A stretch of 61,753 nt of DNA, from the sequence record OL960573.1, one strand, 5' to 3'. The notes under the pieces are model-generated. The model worked only from the letters and a program-made list of their open reading frames with translations, ran no database searches and was not told the origin of the DNA. This document shows, piece after piece, positions 2,115 to 36,563 of the stretch (position 1 is its first letter; the number at the start of each line of letters is the position of its first letter). This stretch comes from Escherichia phage vB_EcoS_SA126VB. The translations under genes were made by a program, and so were the position numbers.

Positions 2115-3611
2115 ATGGGTATTGATGCAACTCACCCGCTATATGATAAGTGGAAGGGTGCATGGGTCAAGTGCAACGACTGCTATGAGGGTGAAGATAA
2201 AATTAAGGAAGAAGGTGTTAAATATCTACCGCCTTTAGCTTCCATGATTATTGATGGGATGAATAATCCTGATGATTTGGGCTTTCAACGTTGGCTCGCT
2301 TATCGTCTGCGTGCTAACTTCCCTGACGATTATTCAAGTGCGGTTACAAACAATTTAGGCCTGCTGCACCAGAAGCCTCCTACAATCCAGCTTCCACCTG
2401 AAATGGAATACATGCGGGAGCTGTGTACTGCGGACGGTGAAGACATTATTGCTCTGCTACGTCGCATCAATGAAATGCAGTTAAAAAATGGACGTTTGGG
2501 CCTGCTGCTGGACTTACCTAAAGGTGAGGATGTAAATAACAGACCTTATATTAGCGTTTATGATGCTTTATCCATTATTAACTGGGATGATGGTAAAGAT
2601 GAATTGGGCAATATCAACTTGAACATGGTTGTTCTGGATGAAAGCGGTCCTGTACGTGTCAATCAGTTTGACTGGAAAGAAGAGAAGCGTTATCGCGTTC
2701 TACAATTGGGTCCAATGGACACAGATGAAGTTGCAGGTGGGGCGGTCTACTCCCAACATCTGTTTATTAACAATACCAATTATGATGAAGGGCAAATGAT
2801 TGCTCCTTATTATAAAGGTAATACGCTGGATGAAATTCCTTTCCAGTTTGTCAATACAACAGATATTACCCCAGCACCGGAAGCGCCGCCATTGTTGGGT
2901 CTTGCTAACATTTGTCTAAGCATGTACCGAAGTGACGCGGATTACCGCCAAAGCTTGCATATGCAGGGTCAGGACACCTTAGTCGTTGTTGGTGGTACTG
3001 GGGAGAATGGGGATAAAGCCCCTCAACGCATTGGCCCTGGCGCTGTCATTAACGTTGCTATTGGTGGTGACGCTAAATATGTAGGTGTTAGCGGTGACGG
3101 TTTGTCCGAGCAACGTCTCGCACTAGCTGCGGATAAGCAAGAAGCCCAAATTAAAGCCGGGCAAATGGTAAACAACACCAAGAGCACGCAGGAATCAGGC
3201 GAAGCTATGAAAACGCGTATTGCTGCGCGTACAGCTAGCCTGATTCGAATTGCGTATACTGGTGCGGCAGGTTTGGAAAACTTGCTGAAGGTTTGCGCTA
3301 AATGGATGGGTGCTGATCCAGAGAAAGTTGTGGTTAAGCCTAATCTTGAATTTACCAAGAGCATGTTTAACGGTCAGGACTTTGTTCAAATTATTACTGC
3401 ACGCAACCTTAAGGCTCCGATCAGCTTGCAGTCTATTCATGGCTGGCTTGTTGATCAGGGCTTAACCACACTAAGCTTTGAAGAAGAAATGGCAATTCTT
3501 GAGGAAGAGCTTAAGAAGTGGCCTCTGCCCGATGATGCTAAGGCTGATTTAAACGCAGAGCAGCAAGTAAACAAAGATCCTAAGGAAGACAACGCTTCCG
3601 ATAAAGAATAG
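2115..3611 (+). CDS. portal protein
   Basis: 498 aa directly after terL; GGAGGG RBS before ATG 2115; canonical position. Confidence 0.75.
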   Translation: MGIDATHPLYDKWKGAWVKCNDCYEGEDKIKEEGVKYLPPLASMIIDGMNNPDDLGFQRWLAYRLRANFPDDYSSAVTNNLGLLHQKPPTIQLPPEMEYMRELCTADGEDIIALLRRINEMQLKNGRLGLLLDLPKGEDVNNRPYISVYDALSIINWDDGKDELGNINLNMVVLDESGPVRVNQFDWKEEKRYRVLQLGPMDTDEVAGGAVYSQHLFINNTNYDEGQMIAPYYKGNTLDEIPFQFVNTTDITPAPEAPPLLGLANICLSMYRSDADYRQSLHMQGQDTLVVVGGTGENGDKAPQRIGPGAVINVAIGGDAKYVGVSGDGLSEQRLALAADKQEAQIKAGQMVNNTKSTQESGEAMKTRIAARTASLIRIAYTGAAGLENLLKVCAKWMGADPEKVVVKPNLEFTKSMFNGQDFVQIITARNLKAPISLQSIHGWLVDQGLTTLSFEEEMAILEEELKKWPLPDDAKADLNAEQQVNKDPKEDNASDKE

Positions 3612-3706
3612 TTGCAACTTCCAAGTTGATTGGTTTATATTAACGAACACGGGGCTGGGACGGCTCAGCTCCAAAAACGTCACACGGGTGACAACGGAGA
3701 TAAGAA

Positions 3707-4579
3707 ATGAAAAAGAGTTCTGTAGCTATTAGTGTTGGTATGGCTTTAATTAATCCACGCGCTCGCGGTGAAGGTGATGTGGAACTGGAATACGAATATG
3801 CATCTGCGGAAGAGATCCCGGCAGAGTTTGCAACTCTTTACGCAGAGCAGGGCGGTAAATACGTTCTTGCAAAAGTTAAAGGTGTAGCCCCTGCTGATAG
3901 CGTTCGTCGTCTGGAAAGTGCGTTAGCTAAAGAACGTAACGACCATCGTCAGGTGAAGCAACAGATTAGCGCACTTGGGCGTCCGGTTGAAGAAGTCCTT
4001 GCGGACCTTGATCGTATCCCTCAACTGGAAGCTGCCGCTAACGGTAAAGGTACTCCGGAAGACATCGAAAAGATGGTTAAAGCCCGTCTTGCTCCGCTCG
4101 AGCGTCAATTACAAACTGTAGCAGCTGAACGCGATTCCGTTAAGCAGGAAATTGAAGGCTACCGCACTCGCGAAACTAAAGCGAAAATTAAAGACGCAGT
4201 TATTGCTGCTGCATCCGGTGCTAAGCTGCGTCCGTCTGCTATCGAAGATGCGGTGACTTATGCACAGTTGCAAATGACCGTCGACGAGAACGGCAATGTG
4301 GTTACGAAAGATGGGGCTGGTGTAACTCCATACCTGACTCCGGCTGATTGGCTGAACGAAATCCTTCCGAAACGTCCGCACTGGGTTGAAGGATCTGCTG
4401 GTGGCGGTGCGTCTGGTCCGGGCGCTGGCGGTCATCACGGTGAAGACCCATACAGTCACGACGGTTGGAACATCTCTAAGCAGATGAATCTCTGGAAAAC
4501 TAATCAATCTTTAGCTAAACGCTTAGCTGAAAAGAATGGCGTAGACCCGCTGAAGCCTGTACGTCCTGCTAAGAAATAA
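3707..4579 (+). CDS. putative scaffolding protein
   Basis: 290 aa, charged helical sequence between portal and major capsid genes; GGAGA RBS. Confidence 0.5.
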   Translation: MKKSSVAISVGMALINPRARGEGDVELEYEYASAEEIPAEFATLYAEQGGKYVLAKVKGVAPADSVRRLESALAKERNDHRQVKQQISALGRPVEEVLADLDRIPQLEAAANGKGTPEDIEKMVKARLAPLERQLQTVAAERDSVKQEIEGYRTRETKAKIKDAVIAAASGAKLRPSAIEDAVTYAQLQMTVDENGNVVTKDGAGVTPYLTPADWLNEILPKRPHWVEGSAGGGASGPGAGGHHGEDPYSHDGWNISKQMNLWKTNQSLAKRLAEKNGVDPLKPVRPAKK

Positions 4580-4580
4580 G

Positions 4581-4609
4581 TTGACATCCCGACGTCCCTG
4601 ATGTTAAGT
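4581..4609 (+). promoter_or_regulatory. sigma70-like promoter (TTGACA-17-TTAAGT) upstream of major capsid gene
   Basis: TTGACA at 4581-4586, 17-nt spacer, TTAAGT at 4604-4609; overlaps a 9-bp inverted repeat (CCCTGATGT/ACATCAGGG). Confidence 0.35.
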
Positions 4610-4701
4610 TTCAACACATCAGGGACACGGGTTCCTAAACAGCCTTCCACGGGGAAAGGCTACCAACAGTAAACAAATCAATCCTTTTCCTGGAGACAAG
4701 T

Positions 4702-5763
4702 ATGTCTAAATCTAAAATTATTCTACCATTTGGTCGTGGTGAAACTGACCTGACTCGTTTGAAGGATGTCATTGTCCCTGAGATCTTCACTGGTTATGTG
4801 CAGACGCAGACCGCCGAACTTTCTGCTCTGATCCAATCCGGTGCGGTTGTAATGGACGAGCGTTTATCTGCTAACCTTGCTGGTGCAGGTCTGACTTTTA
4901 ACGAGCCGTTCTATAACGACCTGAAAGATGAAGACGAAGATATCGCGGTTGATAAAGGCGATCCGTCCAAACCGTCTAACATTACTACCGGATCTGAAGT
5001 TCAGGTTCGTATGAGTCGTTCAAAATCCTGGGGTTCTGCGGATCTGGTATCTGCTTTGATCGGTAACGACCCAATGACCGCTATCGGTAACCGCGTGTCT
5101 GCGTGGTGGGTTCGCCGTCTGCAAGCTGCATACATCGCAACCTGGAAAGGCGTATTTGCTAATGCGAAGAAATCCCATAACGATGATCTGACGTTCGATA
5201 TTTCCGGTTCTTCATTTGTAAACAACCAGACCAACTTTACCGCGTCTAACTTCATCAACGCAACTGCAACGATGGGTGATGCTGCTCGCGGTCTGACTAT
5301 GATTATGGTACACTCTACCGTTCGTAACCGTATGCGTCAGTTGAACCTGATCGACTTCATTCCGGATGCTCGCGGTGAAACTCAGTTTGAGTATTATCAG
5401 GGCCTGCGTATTATCGAAGACGACTCCATGCCACACGATCCGTCTACTGGTGTGTTTGAAAGCTGGCTGTTCGGCCCGGGCGCAACTGCAATGGGTGCTG
5501 GATCACCGAAAGTTCCGACCGCTGTGGTGCGTGACGAAGCCGCTAACCAAGGCGCTGGTGAAGAAGTTCTTCACAACCGTGTTGAATGGATTCTGCATCC
5601 GGTTGGCCATGCTTGGGCTGCTGCTCAAACTGCTAAAGGTGGTCCGTCTAACGCTGCTACCACTAACAACCTGGCCCATGAAGATTCCTGGCGTCGTGCG
5701 TTCCCTGAGCGCAAGCAGCTTAAAGTTGCACGCCTGATTACTCGTGAGTATCAGGGTTCCTAA
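4702..5763 (+). CDS. major capsid protein
   Basis: 353 aa after scaffold gene, GGAGA RBS, followed by strong terminator; typical capsid size and position. Confidence 0.75.
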   Translation: MSKSKIILPFGRGETDLTRLKDVIVPEIFTGYVQTQTAELSALIQSGAVVMDERLSANLAGAGLTFNEPFYNDLKDEDEDIAVDKGDPSKPSNITTGSEVQVRMSRSKSWGSADLVSALIGNDPMTAIGNRVSAWWVRRLQAAYIATWKGVFANAKKSHNDDLTFDISGSSFVNNQTNFTASNFINATATMGDAARGLTMIMVHSTVRNRMRQLNLIDFIPDARGETQFEYYQGLRIIEDDSMPHDPSTGVFESWLFGPGATAMGAGSPKVPTAVVRDEAANQGAGEEVLHNRVEWILHPVGHAWAAAQTAKGGPSNAATTNNLAHEDSWRRAFPERKQLKVARLITREYQGS

Positions 5764-5794
5764 GGCTTCACTCAACGCCGCGCTGTAGTATTTT

Positions 5795-5822
5795 GGGGAC
5801 ATCTTATGTCCCCTCTTTTTTA
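5795..5822 (+). terminator. rho-independent terminator after capsid gene
   Basis: GGGGACAT-ctt-ATGTCCCC stem followed by TCTTTTTT. Confidence 0.7.
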
Positions 5823-5833
5823 GGAGAACAACC

Positions 5834-6157
5834 ATGCGTTATCAACGTTATGAGCGACATGACTTGATGGAAAAATCGTTGCAGGTGGAGCCAATTTCGA
5901 TTACTCTCAATCCTGCTACGATTGACACCACAACTTCAGAAGTAAAAACGGTTACTGTTAAAATAAACTTTGTCCCAGGCGGAACTACAAACAAAGCGTA
6001 TAGCGCGTCAGTTGACGGTTCCTCTGCTACAATTAAAGACAACGGGGACGGTACAATTACTGTGACCACAACCGAAAGCAGTGGTACTTCAAACTTGACA
6101 GTAACGTCCAAGGCAAAGGATAGTGTTACTGGTACATGTGTTATTAATGTGACCTAA
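5834..6157 (+). CDS. Ig-like (Big_2-type) domain protein, possible head decoration protein
   Basis: 107 aa, Thr/Ser-rich beta-strand pattern (TVTVKINF..TITVTTTE..LTVTSKAKD) typical of bacterial Ig-like domains; AGGAGAA RBS. Confidence 0.5.
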   Translation: MRYQRYERHDLMEKSLQVEPISITLNPATIDTTTSEVKTVTVKINFVPGGTTNKAYSASVDGSSATIKDNGDGTITVTTTESSGTSNLTVTSKAKDSVTGTCVINVT

Positions 6158-6173
6158 AAATAAGGATTAAACA

Positions 6174-6827
6174 ATGAAGACATTAATTGAAGCATTGTTA
6201 GAACTTGATCCGGATAACCCGAATCATTGGACTAGCGACGGTCTACCTAAAGTTGACGCTCTGCGTTTCGCTACCGCTAACCCGTCTTTAACTCGCGACG
6301 ATATTACAACTGCTGCTCCGCTGTTTACCCGCGATAACCGCGTGCTGGAAGAGCCCGAGTCAGTGGAACCTGTTAAATCTGCTGACCCAGTTTTACATGA
6401 AGCAGTTAAACAGGAGAAAGCTCATGAAGAACAAAAGAAAGTCGCGGTTGCAACGATGCAAATCGAAGTTAAGATTAGCGAAGCACTGCGTGCTCTTCTG
6501 GAGCCGGAAAAAATCGGTGACACTTCCAGCCTAAGCGATGAAGAGCTGAAAGCGAAGCGTGAAAAGCTTAGCAATGTGGTTAAAGAGATTGCCCACACTA
6601 AGCACGCGTTGGAGCTCGCTATCGCAGACGTTCAAGCGGATCTGGATAAGATTATCGTTGAGCAGGAGCGTCGTCGTCCTAAGTCCGGTCTTACTGCAAC
6701 TCAGATGTATCTTGAAGCGCAGAAAAAACGTAAACCGGAAGACATGCTTTCTGACCATCGCTTCCAGAACCCTATTGACGATCCTGTCGCCCGTATGGTT
6801 GCACGTAATATGATGCGTCGAGGTTAA
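6174..6827 (+). CDS. hypothetical head-module protein
   Basis: 217-aa ORF with AAGGA RBS, in head module. Confidence 0.45.
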   Translation: MKTLIEALLELDPDNPNHWTSDGLPKVDALRFATANPSLTRDDITTAAPLFTRDNRVLEEPESVEPVKSADPVLHEAVKQEKAHEEQKKVAVATMQIEVKISEALRALLEPEKIGDTSSLSDEELKAKREKLSNVVKEIAHTKHALELAIADVQADLDKIIVEQERRRPKSGLTATQMYLEAQKKRKPEDMLSDHRFQNPIDDPVARMVARNMMRRG

Positions 6828-6881
6828 CCATGGAAATGAGCCATAGACAATATGTGTTGTGGCTCCTCCGACGTAATAGAA

Positions 6882-6910
6882 AACGGCGTCAAGAAGACGC
6901 CGTTTCTGTT
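6882..6910 (+). terminator. stem-loop, possible attenuator or weak terminator
   Basis: AACGGCGTC-aagaa-GACGCCGTT followed by TCTGTT. Confidence 0.4.
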
Positions 6911-6965
6911 CCTGAAGAAGAGCTCCCGCCACTTATCCCTACAACCATCGCAATGAGGAAGAAAG

Positions 6966-7472
6966 ATGGAGATTCCACTGATAGTTGAAGATGGTACTGG
7001 TGTACCGGACGCCAACAGTTATGTCACCATTGAACAAGTCCGCATGTATGCCGCAATGCGAGGTATTGTACTTCCAAGTGAAGACGAAGATCTAAAGACA
7101 AAGATCTTTGACGCTATGGATTTTGTGGAAGGGTACAGCCAACGCTTTAAAGGTTATAAAATTGACCCACAGCAACCGCTAAATTGGCCACGCTACGGGG
7201 TGTTTGTGGATGGGTTCGAGCTACCCCAAAGCCCCTTACCAAAGGCGCTTATAAACGCTGTTTGCCAGCTTACAGCGGACTCAGCTACTAGCGGTCCTCT
7301 TAATGGGAAAACTACTGCATATGCAGTCAAAAGAACTAAAGTAGAAGGTCTTGAGATTGAATACGCAACTGGTAGCACAGCACAGTCAGGTCCAGCAAAA
7401 ACATATGATAAAGCTATGACGTTTTTATCACCTTTGCTGGGTTATCAAATGGGTAATAGATTGATACGGTGA
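6966..7472 (+). CDS. putative head-tail connector/adaptor protein
   Basis: 168 aa, position after head genes, GAGGAAG RBS; call by synteny. Confidence 0.45.
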   Translation: MEIPLIVEDGTGVPDANSYVTIEQVRMYAAMRGIVLPSEDEDLKTKIFDAMDFVEGYSQRFKGYKIDPQQPLNWPRYGVFVDGFELPQSPLPKALINAVCQLTADSATSGPLNGKTTAYAVKRTKVEGLEIEYATGSTAQSGPAKTYDKAMTFLSPLLGYQMGNRLIR

Positions 7473-7475
7473 TTT

Positions 7476-7856
7476 ATGAGCTTTCCTTACGAGCAGCTAG
7501 TTGAAGCTGCAAAGCAAATGATCAACGATGCTGGTGTTAACTGTACCCTTGTTGTTATGGAGCAAGGGGAAGGTCAAGATGAATGGGACGATCCGAGCGT
7601 TGAAAAACGATACCCATTCATTGGAGCTTTCCTTTCACCGAAGGAAAAGATGATTGGCGGCAGTCTTGTTTCTGCTGGTGAGCTGAAAGTGTTGACTTAC
7701 CCAATGACACCTCCATTGACTCGCGATAAAGCAATGACTGCACGCATTGAGCGTGTGTCACCGGATGGGGAACTGGAAGTGTGGACAATAAATGAGTTTG
7801 TTGATACACGACCAGCTAACGTTTCTGTTCTTTACACTTTTAAGGTGACGCGATAA
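7476..7856 (+). CDS. putative head closure/head-tail joining protein
   Basis: 126 aa, tightly packed in neck module; synteny. Confidence 0.4.
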   Translation: MSFPYEQLVEAAKQMINDAGVNCTLVVMEQGEGQDEWDDPSVEKRYPFIGAFLSPKEKMIGGSLVSAGELKVLTYPMTPPLTRDKAMTARIERVSPDGELEVWTINEFVDTRPANVSVLYTFKVTR

Positions 7857-9659: not shown

Positions 9660-10067
9660 ATGACCGACACCAAAAAAGCCAAAGTTGTAGTAGCTAAAAG
9701 CTTCCGTGATTTTAAAACTGTGAGCCGGGCTAACGACCCGGCAAACACTAAGCCAATGAATGTGGTTATTCCTGGTGTAGGCGACACTGGCGAAAAACTC
9801 TACATTCGTAGCCGCTACTGCACAGAGTATCGTGACGCGGAATTGAAAGCACAACGTCAACTGTTAGCACTTATGCAGGGCAAAGACGGTGAAGTAACAG
9901 ATGCTATGAAGGAAGACATCCTTACCCGTTCACTGTGCAACCTTGTAGCGGGATGGACGTTTGACGAGCCGCCAACTGTTGACAACGTGTTTGAGTTCTT
10001 AACGGAGAACCCAACTGTCCGAGAAGACCTTAACGTATTTGCCGCTAAAGATAGTAATTTTTTCTAA
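9660..10067 (+). CDS. tail assembly chaperone (G-like, frame-0 product)
   Basis: 135 aa between tail tube and tape measure; ends DSNFF* on a slippery run. Confidence 0.6.
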   Translation: MTDTKKAKVVVAKSFRDFKTVSRANDPANTKPMNVVIPGVGDTGEKLYIRSRYCTEYRDAELKAQRQLLALMQGKDGEVTDAMKEDILTRSLCNLVAGWTFDEPPTVDNVFEFLTENPTVREDLNVFAAKDSNFF

Positions 10068-17834: not shown

Positions 17835-18800
17835 TTAATACATATTTGGTATAGCTATGAGTGGTGTTGAAATCACCACGTTACGACCGGGCATTTGGAA
17901 TTGTTGTCGCGAGTAGTTGCCTACCACGCGGTTTCTTGCAGCACCTACCACATTATCTGCCATGCGGATCCCGTTCATGCGAATATGATTATAACCTCCG
18001 TTGTTCTCAATAAGCGTGCCTGTGTATGCAAGCTGTATTAAGCTGTTACCAATATTTTGCCAGCCCGCGCTAAGATCTACTGTTCCGTTGAATACAAAAG
18101 GCTTCTTAACCGTGGAGAACGTAACCTGCCCCGCGCTGTTCGTCATGGTAATACCATCACCAGGCTGTGGAGGAGTGTTATTAAATATTACTAATTCCAT
18201 CCCAACAGAAGCTGATACGTCATCAATTCCACCATATGCTGCATTGCGAACAATAATATTCGAACCATCAAAACCTACTGACACGTTAGGGTCGTTCCAG
18301 CGAGCAAACGGAACACCACCGACAGGTAACGGTATACTGCCGTTAACCCATACGTACTGGGAATACTGACAAGTCATGAGAAAGGCTGCGTTGGATATTG
18401 CTGTAAAGTCCGTGGAGTTAGCAACAAATAGACCCTCGTTTCGCGTTCCTACAGGTAGCAGTTCCATAATCACCCCTGCCCATTGCGGCAGCCCACTATA
18501 GGCACCCAGTCCGTCCGCACCTCGCAACGTAACTCCACCGTCCCCGTTTCGGGTTACGGACGTCACATACATTGGATCCGGAATAACTAGCGTCTGATCA
18601 AATACTTCCAGTACTTCAACTGGGTTAGTCATAATAACGACATGCTGCGATCCTGGCGTCAGAGGTGTATTGATGGTTAGTGTTTTGTCAGATTGACATC
18701 GCTGATTGAAGTTAGCGCAAAAAGACGGGGCTCTCAATCCTGCTGTTATTTGCATTGCAGGTCTACCGTCATTGTAGTTTATATAAATACCCTCTGGCAT
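17835..18800 (-). CDS. hypothetical beta-rich protein, reverse-oriented inside tail module (possible receptor-binding or moron protein)
   Basis: 321 aa from ATG 18800 (GGAG RBS; track start 18836 is TTG); Gly/Asn/Thr/Val-rich; convergent with tail tip gene. Confidence 0.5.
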   Translation of the reverse strand: MPEGIYINYNDGRPAMQITAGLRAPSFCANFNQRCQSDKTLTINTPLTPGSQHVVIMTNPVEVLEVFDQTLVIPDPMYVTSVTRNGDGGVTLRGADGLGAYSGLPQWAGVIMELLPVGTRNEGLFVANSTDFTAISNAAFLMTCQYSQYVWVNGSIPLPVGGVPFARWNDPNVSVGFDGSNIIVRNAAYGGIDDVSASVGMELVIFNNTPPQPGDGITMTNSAGQVTFSTVKKPFVFNGTVDLSAGWQNIGNSLIQLAYTGTLIENNGGYNHIRMNGIRMADNVVGAARNRVVGNYSRQQFQMPGRNVVISTPLIAIPNMY

Positions 18801-18924
18801 AGTTACTCCAACAATGTGGTTAAAGATGATAGACAATATTGTTTTATATTCTAATTTAATTTACCATATTTATATGCCATAGTGCATCCATTAATTGATC
18901 AACTCTGCGAAACAAGAGGTAAAA

Positions 18925-21311: not shown

Positions 21312-23072
21312 ATGACTACTTATACTAATATTCCTCAGGACATTACAAAACTTAAATCCGAAAAGATGGATAAAAGTAATAACTTATCTGATCTTGCGGA
21401 CCGTGCTGCTGCGTGGTTAAACGTTCGACCAATTGGGTCTACACCATTAGCAGGAGACCCCGTTAGCGATTATGATGCAACAACTAAACGTTGGGTTGAG
21501 AACTTAATCAACACAGGTACAGTTGGTCCAACAATGAACGGGGTAATGAATTACGGGGTAGGGGATTTCCATCTTCGGGATAGTCGCGCTTACGTTCAAC
21601 CTTATGAGGTTACATCGGACGGGCAATTACTTAACCGTGCCGACTGGCCGGAATTGTGGGCTTACGCCCAAATGGTTGGGCTTATAGATGATAGTGAATG
21701 GTTAGCTGATAAATTCAAACGCGGCAAATATTCCTCTGGCGACGGAGTTACAACTTTCCGCGTACCAGATAAAAACGGTGTTCAGGAGGGATCTATTCGT
21801 GCGCTTTATGGTCGTGGTGATGGTGGAAACTCCTCTGCAAATGGGCAACTGTTCGAATCCGCTGCGCCTAATATTACAGGTTTTTTCACCACATATTCAG
21901 CTCAAACCTATGGCCAGGTATTAGGTCAAACTGGTGGTTGTTTTAACGCAAACAATAATGCTTTCCCTGAAGGAAAAGGCGAAGGAATCCCTCCAGGAAC
22001 TACAGCTCTTGCTGGACGTTACAACACCTGTGACTTCAATGCTTCAATTTCAAGTCCAATTTACGGCGCATCCACTGATGAAATCCTTACGCGCAACTTT
22101 GTCGGTGTGTGGGTAATCCGTGCGTCAGGTGGGTTTGTTGCGGCAAATACATCATGGAGTGTAATAAACGCTAATGCTGTCAAACCTTCTTCTGGAACAA
22201 TTGTAAGAGGGGGTAGTGTAAAATCAGAATACAAGATAGGTACGACTACCACACATCAAGCGTATTTGCAATCTTACGGAAAGATTGATGGATTGAGCAG
22301 CGAATCAGGGGCGGTGTTATCAAATGGTGTTCAGGAATGGGCATTTGGTCAGGATGGTACATTACGCCTTCCAAACGCAGAATTTCAGATCGGGACATTG
22401 AGAACTGATGGAGCACTACAGGTTGACGCATACATACGAGCAAAAGACTTCTACGCACAGCCGTTAAACTCTGTCGGCGTTTCTGCTATAGAAAGAAACG
22501 CCATAAGGATGATAAACTACGCCAATGTTGGAGAAGGGTATTTTGTAAACACTATAAGCGGCGATTGGTATGATGGAAGCTGGATTCTTGGTGGTATTCG
22601 CTCCGGTAGTACGTTGTTAGATAGGATGCAACTTAATGTCTCTGACGGAAGCGGAGGAGTTGCATCTTATCTTTTTGGGTCGGACGGTATAGCAAAATGC
22701 CAAGAATGGAGAAGTTTATCCGACAAACGCATTAAAAGTAATATTGAGCGTATAAACGATCCACTGTCCAAGATGCGGAACATTAAAGGCGTTAAATGGA
22801 CATTGGAAACAAATGGGTCAGTTGGGTATGGATTTATTGCTCAGGATGTAGAGAAGGATTTCCCTGAAGCAGTATCCGAAACAAAGTCCTCTCCTGTTAC
22901 CTTACGCAATGGTTCATCCGTGACTGATGTAAAGTCTGTAAACACTTCCGGTATAGCCGCAGCGCTACATCATGAAGCAATTCTTGCTTTGATGCAAAAA
23001 GTGGAGAACCTAGAAGCGGAATTAGCTGCACTAAAAGAAGCGAATGGTTCACAGCAAACTAACCTTCCATAA
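21312..23072 (+). CDS. tail fibre/spike with tail-collar-like N-terminal region and C-terminal S74-type intramolecular chaperone domain
   Basis: N-terminal LNRADWPELWAYA resembles the phage tail-collar motif; C-terminal SDKRIKSNIERI...KGVKWTLE...GFIAQDVEKDFPEAV matches the self-cleaving chaperone domain pattern. Confidence 0.65.
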   Translation: MTTYTNIPQDITKLKSEKMDKSNNLSDLADRAAAWLNVRPIGSTPLAGDPVSDYDATTKRWVENLINTGTVGPTMNGVMNYGVGDFHLRDSRAYVQPYEVTSDGQLLNRADWPELWAYAQMVGLIDDSEWLADKFKRGKYSSGDGVTTFRVPDKNGVQEGSIRALYGRGDGGNSSANGQLFESAAPNITGFFTTYSAQTYGQVLGQTGGCFNANNNAFPEGKGEGIPPGTTALAGRYNTCDFNASISSPIYGASTDEILTRNFVGVWVIRASGGFVAANTSWSVINANAVKPSSGTIVRGGSVKSEYKIGTTTTHQAYLQSYGKIDGLSSESGAVLSNGVQEWAFGQDGTLRLPNAEFQIGTLRTDGALQVDAYIRAKDFYAQPLNSVGVSAIERNAIRMINYANVGEGYFVNTISGDWYDGSWILGGIRSGSTLLDRMQLNVSDGSGGVASYLFGSDGIAKCQEWRSLSDKRIKSNIERINDPLSKMRNIKGVKWTLETNGSVGYGFIAQDVEKDFPEAVSETKSSPVTLRNGSSVTDVKSVNTSGIAAALHHEAILALMQKVENLEAELAALKEANGSQQTNLP

Positions 23073-23088
23073 CCACATCTAACTTCTC

Positions 23089-23113
23089 AGCGCGTCTTCG
23101 GGCGCGCTTTTTA
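23089..23113 (+). terminator. rho-independent terminator after fibre gene
   Basis: AGCGCG-tcttcggg-CGCGCT followed by TTTTTATT. Confidence 0.65.
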
Positions 23114-23242
23114 TTGACTGTCAATCCCAATTTACAAAATCTTTACATTTGGATCATTGTAAAAAGCATGTTAAGGGGTATGCTTTACTTCGTAACCAGT
23201 TGGTTACATCCTCTTAACAAATCCATATATGGAGATTTTCCT

Positions 23243-23950
23243 ATGTCTGACATGACTCTTTTACCTACTAATCTCGGTGGCGACGGTTTCGGTGGTGAAG
23301 CTGGTGCGGCTGGTATCGGTGGCGCGATCGGTGGCTTAATTGGTTCCTGGATCGGTAATGGTTGGGGTGGCAATGGTGGTTGGGGTGGTCGCGGTAACTT
23401 CGCTGGTCCGGTGGAAGTGCAAGCTTCTGTTGACACCAACGCAATTCTGCAAGCTATCAACAACGGTACTCTTCAGACCATTCAGGGGCAGAACGGTACT
23501 AACCTGACTGTTGAACGCTCCGCTGCTTCTACCTATAACGGTATTACTCAGCAGAACACTCAAAACCTGCTGGCTTCCGTTCAGGGTTTTGCTGGTCTGA
23601 ACGCGCAGATCCAGGGCGGCACCAGCCAAGTGCTCGCGGCTCTGTGTAACAACGAAGCGGCTAACATTACCCGTTCTTTCCAGGCCCAGTTAGCAGCCGA
23701 GAAGTGTTGCTGCGAAACCAACCTGAACATCGAGCGTCAAGCTGAAGCTACCCGTGCACTGATCCGTGATCAACACGCACAGGCGCAAGCTGTTCTGATC
23801 TGCGACCTGAAGTCCCAGTTGCAGGAAGCTCGCTTTGCGAACTCTCAGTTGGCGCAGACCGCTGGTCTTACCTGTAAGATCAATCAGGTTGAGCAGTTAG
23901 TTAACTTTAAACTGCCAACTCCTCCAACTCCTCCGACTGGCTGCTGCTAA
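23243..23950 (+). CDS. glycine-rich protein with Cys-containing C-terminus, unknown function
   Basis: ATG 23243 with GGAGA RBS; N-terminal GGDGFGGEAGAAGIGGAIGGLIGSWIGNGWGGNGGWGGRGN; C-terminal CCCE...PTPPTPPTGCC. Confidence 0.45.
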   Translation: MSDMTLLPTNLGGDGFGGEAGAAGIGGAIGGLIGSWIGNGWGGNGGWGGRGNFAGPVEVQASVDTNAILQAINNGTLQTIQGQNGTNLTVERSAASTYNGITQQNTQNLLASVQGFAGLNAQIQGGTSQVLAALCNNEAANITRSFQAQLAAEKCCCETNLNIERQAEATRALIRDQHAQAQAVLICDLKSQLQEARFANSQLAQTAGLTCKINQVEQLVNFKLPTPPTPPTGCC

Positions 23951-23972
23951 TCGTTGAAGTGTGGTTAAACTA

Positions 23973-24006
23973 AAGCGCCTTTCGCTCCTCCGCTTGGGGC
24001 GCTTTT
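23973..24006 (+). terminator. possible terminator (long-loop hairpin plus T-run)
   Basis: AAGCGCC ... GGCGCTT arms followed by TTTT; loop about 18 nt so weaker call. Confidence 0.35.
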
Positions 24007-24021
24007 AACAGAGGTACTATC

Positions 24022-24390
24022 ATGAGCCACATTAAAATCGCAACGATGGGAATACCACGGGTCAAATTGCCTAAGGTTGCTTTACCTCGCATTAGCGTAG
24101 GCGAGCACCACCATGAACATGAGAAAGAGGAATATAAACATGCTCACTCTTATGCTCGAGATCATGAACATATGGCAGCTATGTCAAATGTTCTTGACCG
24201 GATGGAAGAACCTCCGCATACGTGGGCGGCGTACCACGACAAGCCCGGCGGTATGATGTCCATTGTTGAAATGGAATACCGCGAATTAATGGAGTGTAAG
24301 AAAGAAGGCGACCGCGCAGGGATCATGAAAGAGTTGACTGATCTTGCCGCGGCTTGTACTTGCGCTCTTCAAAAAATGAAAGATATGTAA
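24022..24390 (+). CDS. hypothetical protein with histidine-rich segment
   Basis: 122 aa; GEHHHEHEKEEYKHAHSYARDHEHM; AGAGGT RBS. Confidence 0.5.
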   Translation: MSHIKIATMGIPRVKLPKVALPRISVGEHHHEHEKEEYKHAHSYARDHEHMAAMSNVLDRMEEPPHTWAAYHDKPGGMMSIVEMEYRELMECKKEGDRAGIMKELTDLAAACTCALQKMKDM

Positions 24391-24405
24391 GAATAGGAAG
24401 CCGAC

Positions 24406-24936
24406 ATGCAAAACGTAAACGCAGGAATGGGCGTAACCCAGTTCAACGGGATGAAACCGAAAAACTCCATCAACATGGGCGGTGTTGATTGGACGTTACG
24501 TCGGGACGCTACCGATTCAACTACCATGTTCCCACACCAGAAGGTAAGCTGGCTTAATGCTGGCTGTGAACCTATGGGTGATGGAAGGGTTCATTACTGT
24601 TGGATTATGGGAGTGATACCGCCTACGCCGGGCACTATCGAACGACCCGTGAATGTGATGTATGTCGGCTTCCACCAGTTCAAGATCACAATTGCTCCAA
24701 ACTCCATTAGTCAGTCAGATCTTGATCGTATGCATGTTTACGTCAGCGATGGTACAGACTTCGCAGGGGATTTTATTAGTAAGTTTCTTGGTATGCAACC
24801 AGAGCAGCCTGTAGAAGCACGCGAGCATATTAGCCCGTGGCCACCCATGATTGATCAGGAAGTGCTGCAACCAAAGACCGCTCAAACGGTCCCTCAGAAA
24901 CCGGAGCAGAAGGTGAAACCAAATGACGAAGAATGA
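24406..24936 (+). CDS. hypothetical protein
   Basis: 176-aa ORF with AGGAAG RBS. Confidence 0.5.
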   Translation: MQNVNAGMGVTQFNGMKPKNSINMGGVDWTLRRDATDSTTMFPHQKVSWLNAGCEPMGDGRVHYCWIMGVIPPTPGTIERPVNVMYVGFHQFKITIAPNSISQSDLDRMHVYVSDGTDFAGDFISKFLGMQPEQPVEAREHISPWPPMIDQEVLQPKTAQTVPQKPEQKVKPNDEE

Positions 24937-25207
24937 AGGTATTGATAAAGTCGTTGAAGGGCTTTCTATTCGTGCTCATGTTATAGCAGACGAAGGTCAT
25001 GATCAACTCACAATTATGAAATCTGCATTCAGCGATTTTAAGTCTCTTGGAAACTTAAGCGGGTTAATGACTGTGGTGTCGACCGGAAAATTAACCCAGC
25101 AGCAAATCAGTCTGGCTCAGCGTATTGCTGTTAAAGTTATTGCGGTACTTGGGATGATTGAAGCTGAAAAGCCCAGTTCCAAGCAGGATAACGAAAGCGA
25201 CCTTTAA
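24923..25207 (+). CDS. hypothetical protein
   Basis: 94-aa ORF overlapping previous stop. Confidence 0.45.
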   Translation: MTKNEGIDKVVEGLSIRAHVIADEGHDQLTIMKSAFSDFKSLGNLSGLMTVVSTGKLTQQQISLAQRIAVKVIAVLGMIEAEKPSSKQDNESDL

Positions 25208-25218
25208 GGAGGTCTACT

Positions 25219-25422
25219 ATGTGTGGTAATACTAACCGTTGCTGTCTAGGCAGTCCTGCAACACAAGCAGGTATACTTCAGGGGCAATTGGCGCAAGCAG
25301 CTTGTAATTGCAAAACGTTTCAACCTGTACCCGTAACACCAGTGTTCGTAAACGCAGTGGCACCAGCAATTTTTAAGCCTTTTGACCTATATCCATATGG
25401 TAGTTTCTTTCGTATATTTTAA
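25219..25422 (+). CDS. small Cys-containing hypothetical protein
   Basis: 67 aa, AAGGAGG RBS, followed by terminator. Confidence 0.45.
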   Translation: MCGNTNRCCLGSPATQAGILQGQLAQAACNCKTFQPVPVTPVFVNAVAPAIFKPFDLYPYGSFFRIF

Positions 25423-25431
25423 GACGTAGCA

Positions 25432-25457
25432 AGGGGCCGCTAGAGCCCCTTTTCTTT
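25432..25457. terminator. terminator at the switch from rightward to leftward genes
   Basis: AGGGGC-cgctaga-GCCCCT followed by TTTTCTTT on the plus strand; convergent gene ends. Confidence 0.6.
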
Positions 25458-35632: not shown

Positions 35633-36436
35633 TTACAAGCCGTTCAGGGCTTCCGGTACTGGCATAGGCACGCGACCAGTTATACCATTGAACTTCTTCC
35701 AACGTGCATACTGAGTTTTAACAGTATCTTCGTTCAGACCGTGACGACCTGCCAGATTCAGGACATAAGAGATCGGAGCAGGCTGACCCAGTGTAGCGCT
35801 AATCTGATCCATCAGAGCCCAGGCACGACCGCAGGAAGTTTCAGGTTGCGGACGACGAACACCATTCTGTTCCGGCATACGGTTCGCTTCTTTCGCTTTC
35901 ACACGTTCAGCTTTTTCGCGGGCTTTTTCAGCAGCCTTTTCAGCCTGTTTAGCAGCGCGGATCTTGTCTTTGAAGCTTTTAATAGACGAATCCAGTTCGT
36001 CAACCATGCTCTGAGCAGCAGTTACTGCACCGGACAGATCTTCGCCTTTGGATTTTTTAACAACTGCTTTCAGCTCTTTCAGAGCATTCTTTAAATGCTT
36101 CAGCTGTTCAGAACCCTTAGATTCTGCTTCCGTAATCTGTTCAACAGTGCTTTCATCGGTAATACCGGATAAAGCAAACTTCACGGTTTCAACTGCCTGG
36201 GAAAGAGCGGTAAATTTATTTTCCGCTTCAGTACGGATTTCAGCTTGTTTCTTTTCAGCGGCAGCTTTTTTCTCTGCTTCTTTTTTCTCTTTTGCTACGC
36301 GTGCAGCTTCAGCGGCAGCGGCTTTTTTAGCTTCTGCGTCGTTAGCAGTAGCTTCTTTCTTTGCAGGCTTAGCAGATTTTGCAGCGGCAGCAGCGGCTGC
36401 GGCAGCAGCGGCTTTCTTATCTTCAATATTACTCAT
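35633..36436 (-). CDS. Ala/Lys-rich protein with basic low-complexity N-terminus
   Basis: ATG 36436 with GGAG RBS (track start is GTG); N-terminal AAAAAAAAAAAKSAKPAKKE...; globular C-terminus. Confidence 0.5.
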   Translation of the reverse strand: MSNIEDKKAAAAAAAAAAAKSAKPAKKEATANDAEAKKAAAAEAARVAKEKKEAEKKAAAEKKQAEIRTEAENKFTALSQAVETVKFALSGITDESTVEQITEAESKGSEQLKHLKNALKELKAVVKKSKGEDLSGAVTAAQSMVDELDSSIKSFKDKIRAAKQAEKAAEKAREKAERVKAKEANRMPEQNGVRRPQPETSCGRAWALMDQISATLGQPAPISYVLNLAGRHGLNEDTVKTQYARWKKFNGITGRVPMPVPEALNGL

Positions 36437-36563
36437 TTTCTTCACTCCGAATTATTATGGGTTCGTTTGTTACCAACGGGGTTAAATGTACCAAAGGATT
36501 TTGTGACACGCAACCACTTACATAAACATTTTTAAAAATATTTTTGATCAGGGTTAGAACTTA

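Follow-up and report, generated by a model that had tools for sequence, protein, structure and literature searches.

A glycine-rich phage protein at the head of a mobile four-gene cassette: a tentative reading as a membrane-anchored coiled coil

In Escherichia phage vB_EcoS_SA126VB (SA126VB; sequence record OL960573.1), the tail fibre genes are followed by an open reading frame (ORF), here called gene A, whose predicted product is rich in glycine near its N-terminus and in cysteine toward its end. What kind of protein is this, and where in the infection would it act? The DNA analysed here (the window, 61,753 nucleotides) is an essentially complete Seuratvirus (Queuovirinae) genome. From 22.5 to 24.5 kb it shares 97% identity with Escherichia phage ECP2304, and gene A is 96-98% identical to its counterparts in CAjan, slur01, SeppeHuegi and other phages. 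An earlier note, made from the letters alone, had been reminded by the composition of glycine-rich bacteriocins or tail-needle proteins rather than of any common structural protein. We find that gene A leads a cassette of four genes that occurs at different sites in different phage lineages, has signals for its own expression, and is lost or broken in several viable phages. The reading we favour, which we hold tentatively and which draws on sequence comparison and structure prediction, is that the product may be an abundant protein with a single membrane-spanning anchor, which forms an oligomeric coiled coil and acts within infected cells.

A phage protein family and its three partner genes

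The frame of gene A begins at an ATG at 23243 and ends with a TAA at 23948-23950. It has its own ribosome binding site, as the earlier note had proposed: a Shine-Dalgarno sequence (GGAG) lies 8 nt 5' of the start codon. The ratio of nonsynonymous to synonymous substitution rates (dN/dS), computed against seven diverged homologues, is 0.09-0.26 (an eighth homologue was left out because its divergence was too great to score). Thus, on this comparative evidence, gene A is a genuine protein-coding gene that is read on the plus strand and kept by purifying selection. Two antisense ORFs within it (23185-23463 and 23336-23629) were dismissed as by-products, given that the dN/dS values back the plus frame.

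Residues 14-55 comprise 48% glycine, 12% alanine, 10% isoleucine and 7% tryptophan. The earlier description of the first ~50 residues as nearly pure Gly/Ala/Ile/Trp applies to this part of the protein and not to residues 1-13 (MSDMTLLPTNLGG), which form a conserved peptide without Gly repeats. There are eight cysteines (135, 155-157 in CCCE, 187, 211, 234 and 235). The CCCE and the PTPPTPPTGCC C-terminus had both been recognised before, with a count that was one too low, C135 having been missed.

The protein matches the profile of PHROG 9288, a phage family without assigned function, over its whole length (E = 2e-129; residues 1-235 on positions 1-233 of 234). A search of 5.8 billion proteins returned 170 homologues, all labelled 'hypothetical', and exhaustive searching of 1.84 billion cluster representatives with a profile yielded 116 clusters at 50% identity, nearly all of ~200-290 amino acids (aa) and with one shared layout. 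Gene A had no match in Pfam, NCBIfam or PADLOC and none in the PDB by sequence profile; comparison of its model with viral models and the PDB using Foldseek gave no fold match. Conserved across the family are the acidic N-terminal peptide, the Gly-rich hydrophobic segment, QG[QF]xG.N motifs whose spacing is a multiple of 11 residues, the cysteines C155-157 (conservation of at least 90% in 60 diverse members), R171, an LCD.K motif and Q205. The proline-rich tail is kept within the family's enterobacterial core, where the terminal GCC or GCCGC is itself optional, and is replaced by other endings in distant members (eiAU, vB_YenM_22 and phiWae15). A scan of 185,579 representative bacterial genomes for the gene A pattern returned two distant matches, both from Mailhella metagenome-assembled genomes. 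Thus, the family belongs to phages rather than to enterobacterial chromosomes or prophages, and a prophage or bacterial origin of gene A was dropped. In the literature searched we found no statement on the gene A protein, and no virion proteome for any cassette-bearing phage; a proteome exists for phage Sfin-1, from which the cassette is absent.

Every lineage with a good gene A homologue has the same three genes, B, C and D, after it. The order A-B-C-D is invariant in about 45 loci from GenBank and IMG/VR, and recurs in a very distant 66-kb contig where similarity is detected only at the profile level. The product of gene B gives a sub-threshold PRA-PH match in Pfam (E = 0.016) and is labelled 'putative pyrophosphatase' in records of the BASEL collection; its acidic/His-rich stretch is present in homologues without being conserved in sequence. 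Beyond this weak match, B, C and D had no match in Pfam, NCBIfam or PADLOC. B and C had none in the PDB, and a large homology search with gene C returned unannotated phage proteins only. Genes C and D overlap by 14 nt.

The cassette is carried by siphoviruses and one myovirus-named phage group, of Enterobacterales and Aeromonas. It follows the lateral tail fibre genes in Seuratvirus, Nonagvirus and Tempevirinae, and genes annotated as 'host specificity' and 'putative tail' in eiAU. In Sashavirus Sergei it lies between the large terminase gene (TerL) and divergent genes, in Yersinia phage P400 it stands back-to-back with head genes, and in vB_YenM_22 and phiWae15 it is placed among unannotated genes. 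The location of gene A after the fibre genes, correctly observed for this window and found in many phages, does not hold elsewhere. Because the position varies between lineages, the tie to fibre genes is incidental, and a functional connection with them was rejected. We conclude from these comparisons that the cassette is a horizontally mobile accessory unit, which occupies different genome sites in different phage lineages. Since the N-terminal peptide and the motifs travel among phages whose virion proteins are unrelated, A more probably has partners encoded by the host or the cassette than by virion genes.

Two further observations concern the surroundings of the cassette and its outlying relatives. 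Directly after D is a 67-aa Cys-rich ORF (25219-25422, plus strand; MCGNTNRCCLG...ACNC..., PHROG 25697), which is followed by a terminator-like hairpin (25431-25451). Homologues with 38-41% identity are found at the same place in Sashavirus-type loci, and the ORF may be an optional fifth member. The CCC motif occurs twice, as CCCxT, in very distant relatives of gene A at 5503-7655 of locus L051 and 3482-5715 of locus L014. The first retains the A-B-C-D order and comes after a tail-fibre-like gene. The second, on a contig of Gram-positive phage type, lies after a holin/endolysin cassette and before a BclA_C-domain gene, with no B, C or D homologue evident on that contig.

Several phages have lost gene A or carry it in broken form. 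In SeppeHuegi, codon 83 is an amber codon (CAG to TAG). In KurtStettler, an in-frame deletion takes out the promoter, leader, ribosome binding site and residues 1-19 of gene A and joins the S74 end of the upstream fibre protein to residue 20. The 510-aa product (locus L001, 3127-4659) is annotated 'lateral tail fiber chaperone', and the fusion is the source of this label: the Peptidase_S74 domain was not detected in gene A using Pfam and belongs to the fibre protein. PhiG7, an otherwise syntenic Seuratvirus, has lost B to D and encodes a 59-aa remnant of gene A (locus L071, 2938-3117). An A::C fusion protein (P0121) occurs in 11 contigs. The T5-like Epseptimavirus contain broken pieces of gene A only, after the L-shaped fibre gene (locus L004, 5797-6495; locus L007, 4794-5390); these remnants keep promoter-like boxes and the leader hairpin, and B, C and D are absent. 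As judged from these genomes, gene A is dispensable in culture, since viable phages have lost or disrupted it several times over. A gene that is under strong purifying selection and is nevertheless lost time and again has the profile of an accessory fitness gene.

Expression signals and predicted abundance

Gene A is preceded by the intrinsic terminator of the upstream fibre gene, whose strength the earlier note had remarked on. The stem-loop proper (23089-23108) has eight pairs, six of them GC, with a TTCG loop and a T-run behind it, and SeppeHuegi carries the same terminator. By these features it isolates gene A from read-through of the late operon. The spacer that follows was said to be dense in palindromes, and this is borne out: it contains three short palindromes, and palindrome matches number six versus 1.05 expected in shuffles (P about 0.005). 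None of the palindromes has a second copy anywhere in the window. TTGACTGTCAA carries a mutation in SeppeHuegi, and GTAAC..GTTAC alone persists in relatives, where it forms a covarying hairpin. With single copies in the window and no conservation of TTGACTGTCAA, the palindromes were rejected as repeated regulatory sites. The other palindrome that had been singled out, GTAACCAGTTGGTTAC, does matter, as it is the conserved hairpin of the 5' untranslated region (5'-UTR).

Leaders from eleven phage lineages align into one layout of a sigma70-like promoter, a stem-loop, a TTAACAA motif and a Shine-Dalgarno sequence. Promoter-like matches of at least 8/12 that end 4-11 nt before the hairpin are present in 58% of 33 distinct leaders, compared to 7% of background positions, and matches of up to 10/12 (TTGTCA-16-TAGAAT) occur in Henuseptimavirus-type loci. 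The candidate in the window scores 8/12, which is why a generic promoter scan missed it. The hairpin is predicted to start at about +1 to +3 of the transcript. None of the 34 distinct leaders lacks it, and its stem occurs in 18 different sequences (GTAGC/GCTAC, GTAGTC/GACTAC, GTGGC/GCCAC and CCACC/GGTGG, for example). Its mean folding free energy is -6.1 versus -1.9 kcal/mol for shuffled leaders, a value reached by none of 30 shuffle sets; the fold is unremarkable when the window sequence is taken alone, and the locus has no match in Rfam. As all 18 stems keep their pairing, the comparison supports an RNA structure rather than a protein operator. A hairpin at the extreme 5' end of an mRNA is a classical stabiliser against RNase E, and by analogy the leader hairpin probably has this function.

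Approximately 45-60 nt upstream of the leader hairpin is a tandem TTTACA motif (aTTTACAaaatcTTTACAt; 23131-23148, plus strand). Two T5-like phages, S126 and vaffelhjerte, have it in near-identical form, and it can be recognised in KarlJaspers (loci L004, L007 and L003). Its distance to the -10 box does not suit a -35 element; it could be an UP-like or activator site.

At nearly all loci, a hairpin equivalent to the GC-rich one between genes A and B stands directly after the gene A stop; most have a T-run, which is missing in some lineages. The record of phage Sergei annotates it as a terminator. We predict that it fixes the ratio of A to B-C-D, either as a leaky terminator or as a 3' stabiliser. 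The earlier picture of a separate expression unit is in keeping with the sequence signals, in that gene A appears to be set apart by a terminator, promoter-like boxes and conserved flanking hairpins.

The codon usage of gene A points in the same direction as these signals. Its fraction of E. coli-optimal codons (Fop) is 0.72, the highest of the 63 genes in the window, and it contains no rare Arg or Ile codons. The possibility that this bias is an artefact of the many glycines was rejected, as it holds without Gly and within residues 56-235. With Gly excluded, the Fop of gene A is 0.68, compared to 0.68 for the major capsid gene and 0.69 for the gene of a protein resembling single-stranded DNA-binding protein (SSB). 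The Fop of B, C and D is average (0.48), and in 36 of 37 loci gene A exceeds its cassette partners. It is probable, from codon usage and the flanking signals, that gene A is built for very high expression and that its product reaches capsid-protein-like amounts in the infected cell. A strong, stabilised first cistron, a hairpin and weaker partners make up the layout of operons that need one product in large excess.

One other gene of the window stands out by the same measure. A 270-aa protein of PHROG 11298 (35633-36445, minus strand), encoded between genes of the deazaguanine pathway and a helicase gene, has a Fop of 0.70 (0.68 without Gly). This is level with the major capsid gene, and the protein is predicted to be very abundant.

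Predicted architecture and possible roles

Within the hydrophobic segment and just beyond it, G26, G30, G34, G38 and G42 have perfect (GxxxG)4 spacing, and G30 and G34 are near-invariant in the family. Such spacing is reportedly typical of helix-helix packing in membranes. No Pfam Gly-zipper model matched gene A at E below 1. Hydrophobicity is intermediate (1.34 in a 17-residue window and 1.27 in a 19-residue window). Among the 60 family members, the 17-residue value is at least 1.6 in 15 and between 1.0 and 1.6 in 42, and distant members have classical transmembrane (TM) helices at the same position (LIGILLIAALFGG, WIPFVLILALLGG and WIWVILLFFLFAGG). We infer that the segment is a single-pass membrane anchor. 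The N-terminal tail is net negative in 58 of the 60 members, and the 20 residues after the segment contain one basic residue on average. By the positive-inside rule, this points to an N-out/C-in topology. No obvious hydrophobic segment was seen on reading the sequences of B, C and D, and such soluble-looking partners fit a cytoplasmic location of the helical domain of A.

The remainder of the protein is predicted to be helical. Residues 65-120 have a 3.65-residue periodicity with hendecad-type (11-residue) repeats. Using the 60-sequence alignment, AlphaFold2 (AF2) modelled a continuous helix for residues 86-223, with predicted local distance difference test (pLDDT) values above 90 for about 120-215 and low confidence for the N-terminal 64 residues. 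A shallow alignment gave a low-confidence single helix. The structure prediction that the earlier note had called for, made for monomers only, yields a long helix that is confident over ~120-215. A lone helix of ~20 nm suggests a homo-oligomeric coiled coil or bundle. For the CCC, a metal site and an interchain disulfide layer are among the possible functions.

In the membrane-anchored coiled coil that we favour, the gene A protein would be made in capsid-like amounts within the infected cell and held in the inner membrane by its single glycine-zipper helix. The acidic, conserved N-terminal peptide would face the periplasm. The ~20-nm homo-oligomeric helical domain with its CCC layer would face the cytoplasm, where it could meet soluble B, C and D. 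For the role we can offer a guess by analogy: a host-directed, envelope-level accessory function that is useful in natural hosts and not on laboratory K-12, such as excluding competing phages or resisting a membrane-level host response. A bolder and doubtful extension is that the A-B-C-D cassette encodes an unrecognised, very abundant phage assembly at the host inner membrane. Zipper-anchored bundles of A, CCC-locked or metal-loaded, might use the periplasmic N-terminal peptide to engage a conserved envelope component (e.g., a factor of Ton/Tol type or one for DNA entry). B, C and D would dock on the cytoplasmic side, and the whole could act as a new kind of mobile envelope-remodelling or exclusion module that several families of virulent enterobacterial phages have in common.

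Several points weigh against the membrane-anchored coiled coil. The hydrophobicity of the segment in the core family is below classical TM thresholds, no homology ties gene A to membranes, and the proposed topology leans on the positive-inside rule with few charges. The eight cysteines suit an oxidising (periplasmic or extracellular) site better than the cytoplasm. Codon optimality at the level of the capsid gene and a frequent location at the edge of a structural module would be expected of a decoration or fibre protein as well, and the biological role is a guess reached by exclusion and analogy.

The codon optimality and the location would favour a virion accessory fibre or decoration, that is, a trimeric coiled coil with its N-terminus on the capsid or tail, disulfide-locked through the CCC after lysis and dispensable in the laboratory. 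The long helix fits a coiled-coil fibre, the cysteines fit an extracellular protein, dispensability is as expected, and gene A often ends the tail-fibre module or adjoins terminase/head genes. We nevertheless consider this rather unlikely: the same N-terminal peptide is found across unrelated virions (Queuovirinae, Drexlerviridae, Eiauvirus and the myovirus-named vB_YenM_22), and gene A travels with B-C-D rather than with capsid or tail genes and has its own predicted promoter apart from the late operon. It has no structural PHROG or Pfam match, in agreement with the earlier view that this is not a common structural protein. The likeness to a tail needle is opposed by the lack of a tail-family match, by loss or breakage in viable phages and by sites away from tail genes. 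In the CAjan record, gp06 and gp09 are marked 'structural protein' and the gene A homologue gp21 is hypothetical; this labelling speaks weakly and indirectly against gene A in the virion. Alternatively, A could be a soluble cytoplasmic scaffold that combines a low-complexity Gly/aromatic/Arg-rich N-terminus with an oligomerising coiled coil and whose condensate or lattice concentrates B (as a MazG-like nucleoside triphosphate pyrophosphatase), C and D. This would accommodate the predicted disorder of the Gly/Trp/Phe/Arg-rich region, the sub-threshold hydrophobicity of the core family, partners without an obvious TM segment, and the predicted strong expression of the first gene, with a hairpin ahead of three weaker ones. 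The unmistakable TM helices of distant members at the equivalent position and the regular glycine spacing make it unlikely.

An involvement in lysis, as a holin-, antiholin- or spanin-like or timing factor that uses the glycine-zipper TM helix and the long coiled coil, is improbable. A TM-like helix with a long Cys-bearing helical domain does resemble an i-spanin or class III holin T in outline, and the distant relative just downstream of a Gram-positive phage lysis cassette would be in keeping with such a role. However, SeppeHuegi has a full endolysin, holin, i-spanin and o-spanin cassette at its far right end, and ORFs of matching size are present in the window at about 60.0-61.7 kb. The N-terminal tail is acidic rather than basic, strong constitutive-type expression is unlike that of holins, and no holin or spanin family in Pfam matches. 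Very improbable is a bacteriocin- or colicin-like protein that is released at lysis and whose Gly-rich N-terminus threads a porin or inserts in the membrane of other cells, killing or blocking them. The Gly/Trp-rich N-terminus is superficially similar to class II microcins and to disordered colicin translocation domains, the D-M-T-L-L peptide has a faint TonB-box flavour, and the predicted abundance would suit a released factor. Yet at 235 aa and 24 kDa the protein exceeds the size expected of a class II microcin precursor (under about 10-12 kDa). Pfam gives it no bacteriocin or colicin match, a cytotoxic domain is lacking, and its leader-like element, NLGG(DG), is an insertion that most of the family does not have. 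The records of relatives list no gene for an exporter, an immunity protein or a lysis protein, with SeppeHuegi and the structural half of CAjan covered for the first two, and B, C and D lack C39-peptidase ABC exporter or immunity domains. Killing potential hosts would bring no obvious gain to a virulent phage. The resemblance to bacteriocins in the earlier note thus founders on size, leader and missing exporter and immunity genes. We give the lowest probability of all to a lateral tail fibre chaperone or sugar-binding accessory. This is what the GenBank labels 'putative lateral tail fiber chaperone' and 'putative sugar-binding protein' of KurtStettler, PJ16 and KarlJaspers imply, and gene A does come just after fibre genes in many phages. 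The chaperone label stems from the fused S74 domain. For sugar binding, the best ricin B match of the family profile has E = 0.38, Pfam gives no match and the model is all-helical. The cassette is also found away from fibre genes, and phages in which A is broken or lost are still viable isolates.

The family and its cassette are widespread, in Seuratvirus, Nonagvirus, Tempevirinae, Sashavirus, Eiauvirus and vB_YenM_22-like Yersinia phages, with remnants in Epseptimavirus. Among the carriers are many groups of coliphages and Salmonella phages that serve as models or in therapy. All four genes are without assigned function, and the lead gene is, by its sequence signals, among the most strongly expressed of the phage. 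A protein that is abundant, conserved, mobile and dispensable bears the mark of a factor in host interaction or competition, and the function of A could reveal a new mechanism of exclusion, anti-defence or envelope remodelling. Gene A is an unusually tractable case, as natural knock-outs are public: SeppeHuegi (amber) and KurtStettler (fusion) in the BASEL collection, and phiG7 (cassette lost) in GenBank. The database labels 'lateral tail fiber chaperone' and 'sugar-binding protein' are misleading for A and are corrected here.

Elsewhere in the window, an antisense gene for a 332-aa protein (17835-18836, minus strand) separates the J-like tail tip gene from the lateral fibre gene. Its product matches PHROG 1265 ('membrane protein', moron/host-takeover) and Pfam DUF6453 (E = 8e-131). 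At this site CAjan carries a small lipoprotein gene instead, which indicates a variable slot beside the receptor-binding region. Between the tail assembly chaperone ORF (9660-10067, plus strand) and the tape measure gene (from 10465) is a gap where one would expect a G/T-type frameshift product. The window does not contain the -2 slippery sequence (CCCTTTTTTT) that has been reported for phage 9g.

Table 1. Features of gene A, its flanks and its partner genes (window positions)
Feature	Position	Strand	Remarks
Second fibre protein	21312-23072	+	586 aa; Peptidase_S74 intramolecular chaperone domain, residues 470-521
Intrinsic terminator of upstream fibre gene	23089-23113	+	stem AGCGCG..CGCGCT, TTCG loop, T-run
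Palindrome ATTGACTGTCAAT	23113-23125		spacer
Sigma70-like promoter candidate	23157-23184	+	-35 TTGTAA 23157-23162, 16-nt spacer, -10 TATGCT 23179-23184
Palindrome GTAACCAGTTGGTTAC, 5'-UTR stem-loop	23192-23207	+	spacer; GTAACC-AGTT-GGTTAC; starts 7 nt after -10 box
Leader motif TTAACAA	23214-23220	+	single-stranded, conserved; followed by Shine-Dalgarno
Shine-Dalgarno GGAG	23231-23234	+	gene A
Palindrome TCCATATATGGA			spacer; overlaps gene A Shine-Dalgarno
Gene A	23243-23950	+	235 aa, 24 kDa; PHROG 9288
Conserved acidic N-terminal peptide MSDMTLLPT	23243-23269	+	family consensus M-[ST]-D-M-T-L-[LIV]-P
Putative glycine-zipper hydrophobic segment and Gly/Trp/Arg-rich juxta-segment	23300-23407	+	residues 20-38 (AGAAGIGGAIGGLIGSWIG), then 39-55
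Q/N/A-rich region, predicted helical	23435-23911	+	residues 65-223
Near-invariant CCC	23705-23713	+	residues 155-157, within E-C-C-C-E-T-N-L-N-I-E
PTPPTPPTGCC tail	23915-23947	+	PTPxTPP conserved in enterobacterial family core
GC-rich 3' hairpin (AAAGCGCC..GGCGCTTT) and T-run	23972-24006	+	between gene A and Shine-Dalgarno of gene B
Cassette partners B, C and D	24022-25207	+	order A-B-C-D throughout
Gene B	24022-24390	+	122 aa; His/Glu-rich N-terminal stretch HHHEHEKEEYKHAHSYARDHEH; C-terminal helical core with MazG-like EXXE..EXXD
Gene C	24406-24936	+	176 aa; PHROG 8329
Gene D	24923-25207	+	94 aa; PHROG 7239

Comparison with known systems

Long predicted helices are also found in the phi29 head fibre gp8.5, T4 fibritin and the P22 tail needle gp26, and T4 Hoc/Soc, T5 pb10 and the phi29 head fibres are virion decorations that are dispensable in the laboratory, as gene A is. 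Unlike gp8.5, fibritin and gp26, to which it has no homology, gene A has its own predicted promoter and moves among phages with unrelated virions. The i-spanin Rz and class III holin T similarly combine an N-terminal TM helix with a long helical or Cys-bearing domain of a length close to the width of the periplasm. In contrast to these, close relatives of SA126VB have their lysis cassette elsewhere, A has no o-spanin partner or Pfam match, and its acidic N-terminal tail suggests the opposite topology. The G26-G30-G34-G38-G42 series in a hydrophobic segment rich in small residues recalls the glycine-zipper helices of VacA, MscL and pinholin S21, although A lacks a Pfam Gly-zipper match.

The arrangement of predicted promoter, 5' hairpin, codon-optimised first gene, 3' hairpin and weaker partners is reminiscent of morons and of the papA and Ff gene VIII operons. 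Unlike morons, the cassette is carried by phages without annotated lysogeny genes in the records seen, and not by prophages; unlike papA and Ff gene VIII, gene A does not encode a known polymer subunit. T4 rIIA and rIIB are abundant, membrane-associated, dispensable on standard hosts and needed against particular host systems. With A they would share a lifestyle and nothing more, as there is no homology and sizes and architecture differ.

Phages encode inner-membrane proteins that exclude superinfection or block injection, such as HK97 gp15 and T4 Imm and Sp. Like these proteins of small to medium size, A is a phage-encoded (and in its case predicted) membrane protein that is dispensable in the laboratory, predicted to be expressed outside the late operon and often encoded beside host-recognition genes. 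A has no sequence or fold kinship with them and is much larger, with a ~20-nm helical domain, the CCC, capsid-level codon bias and three conserved partner genes. Gene A is not strange in kind, being a phage accessory gene with its own expression signals; it is unusual in its invariant CCC and its three obligate partners.

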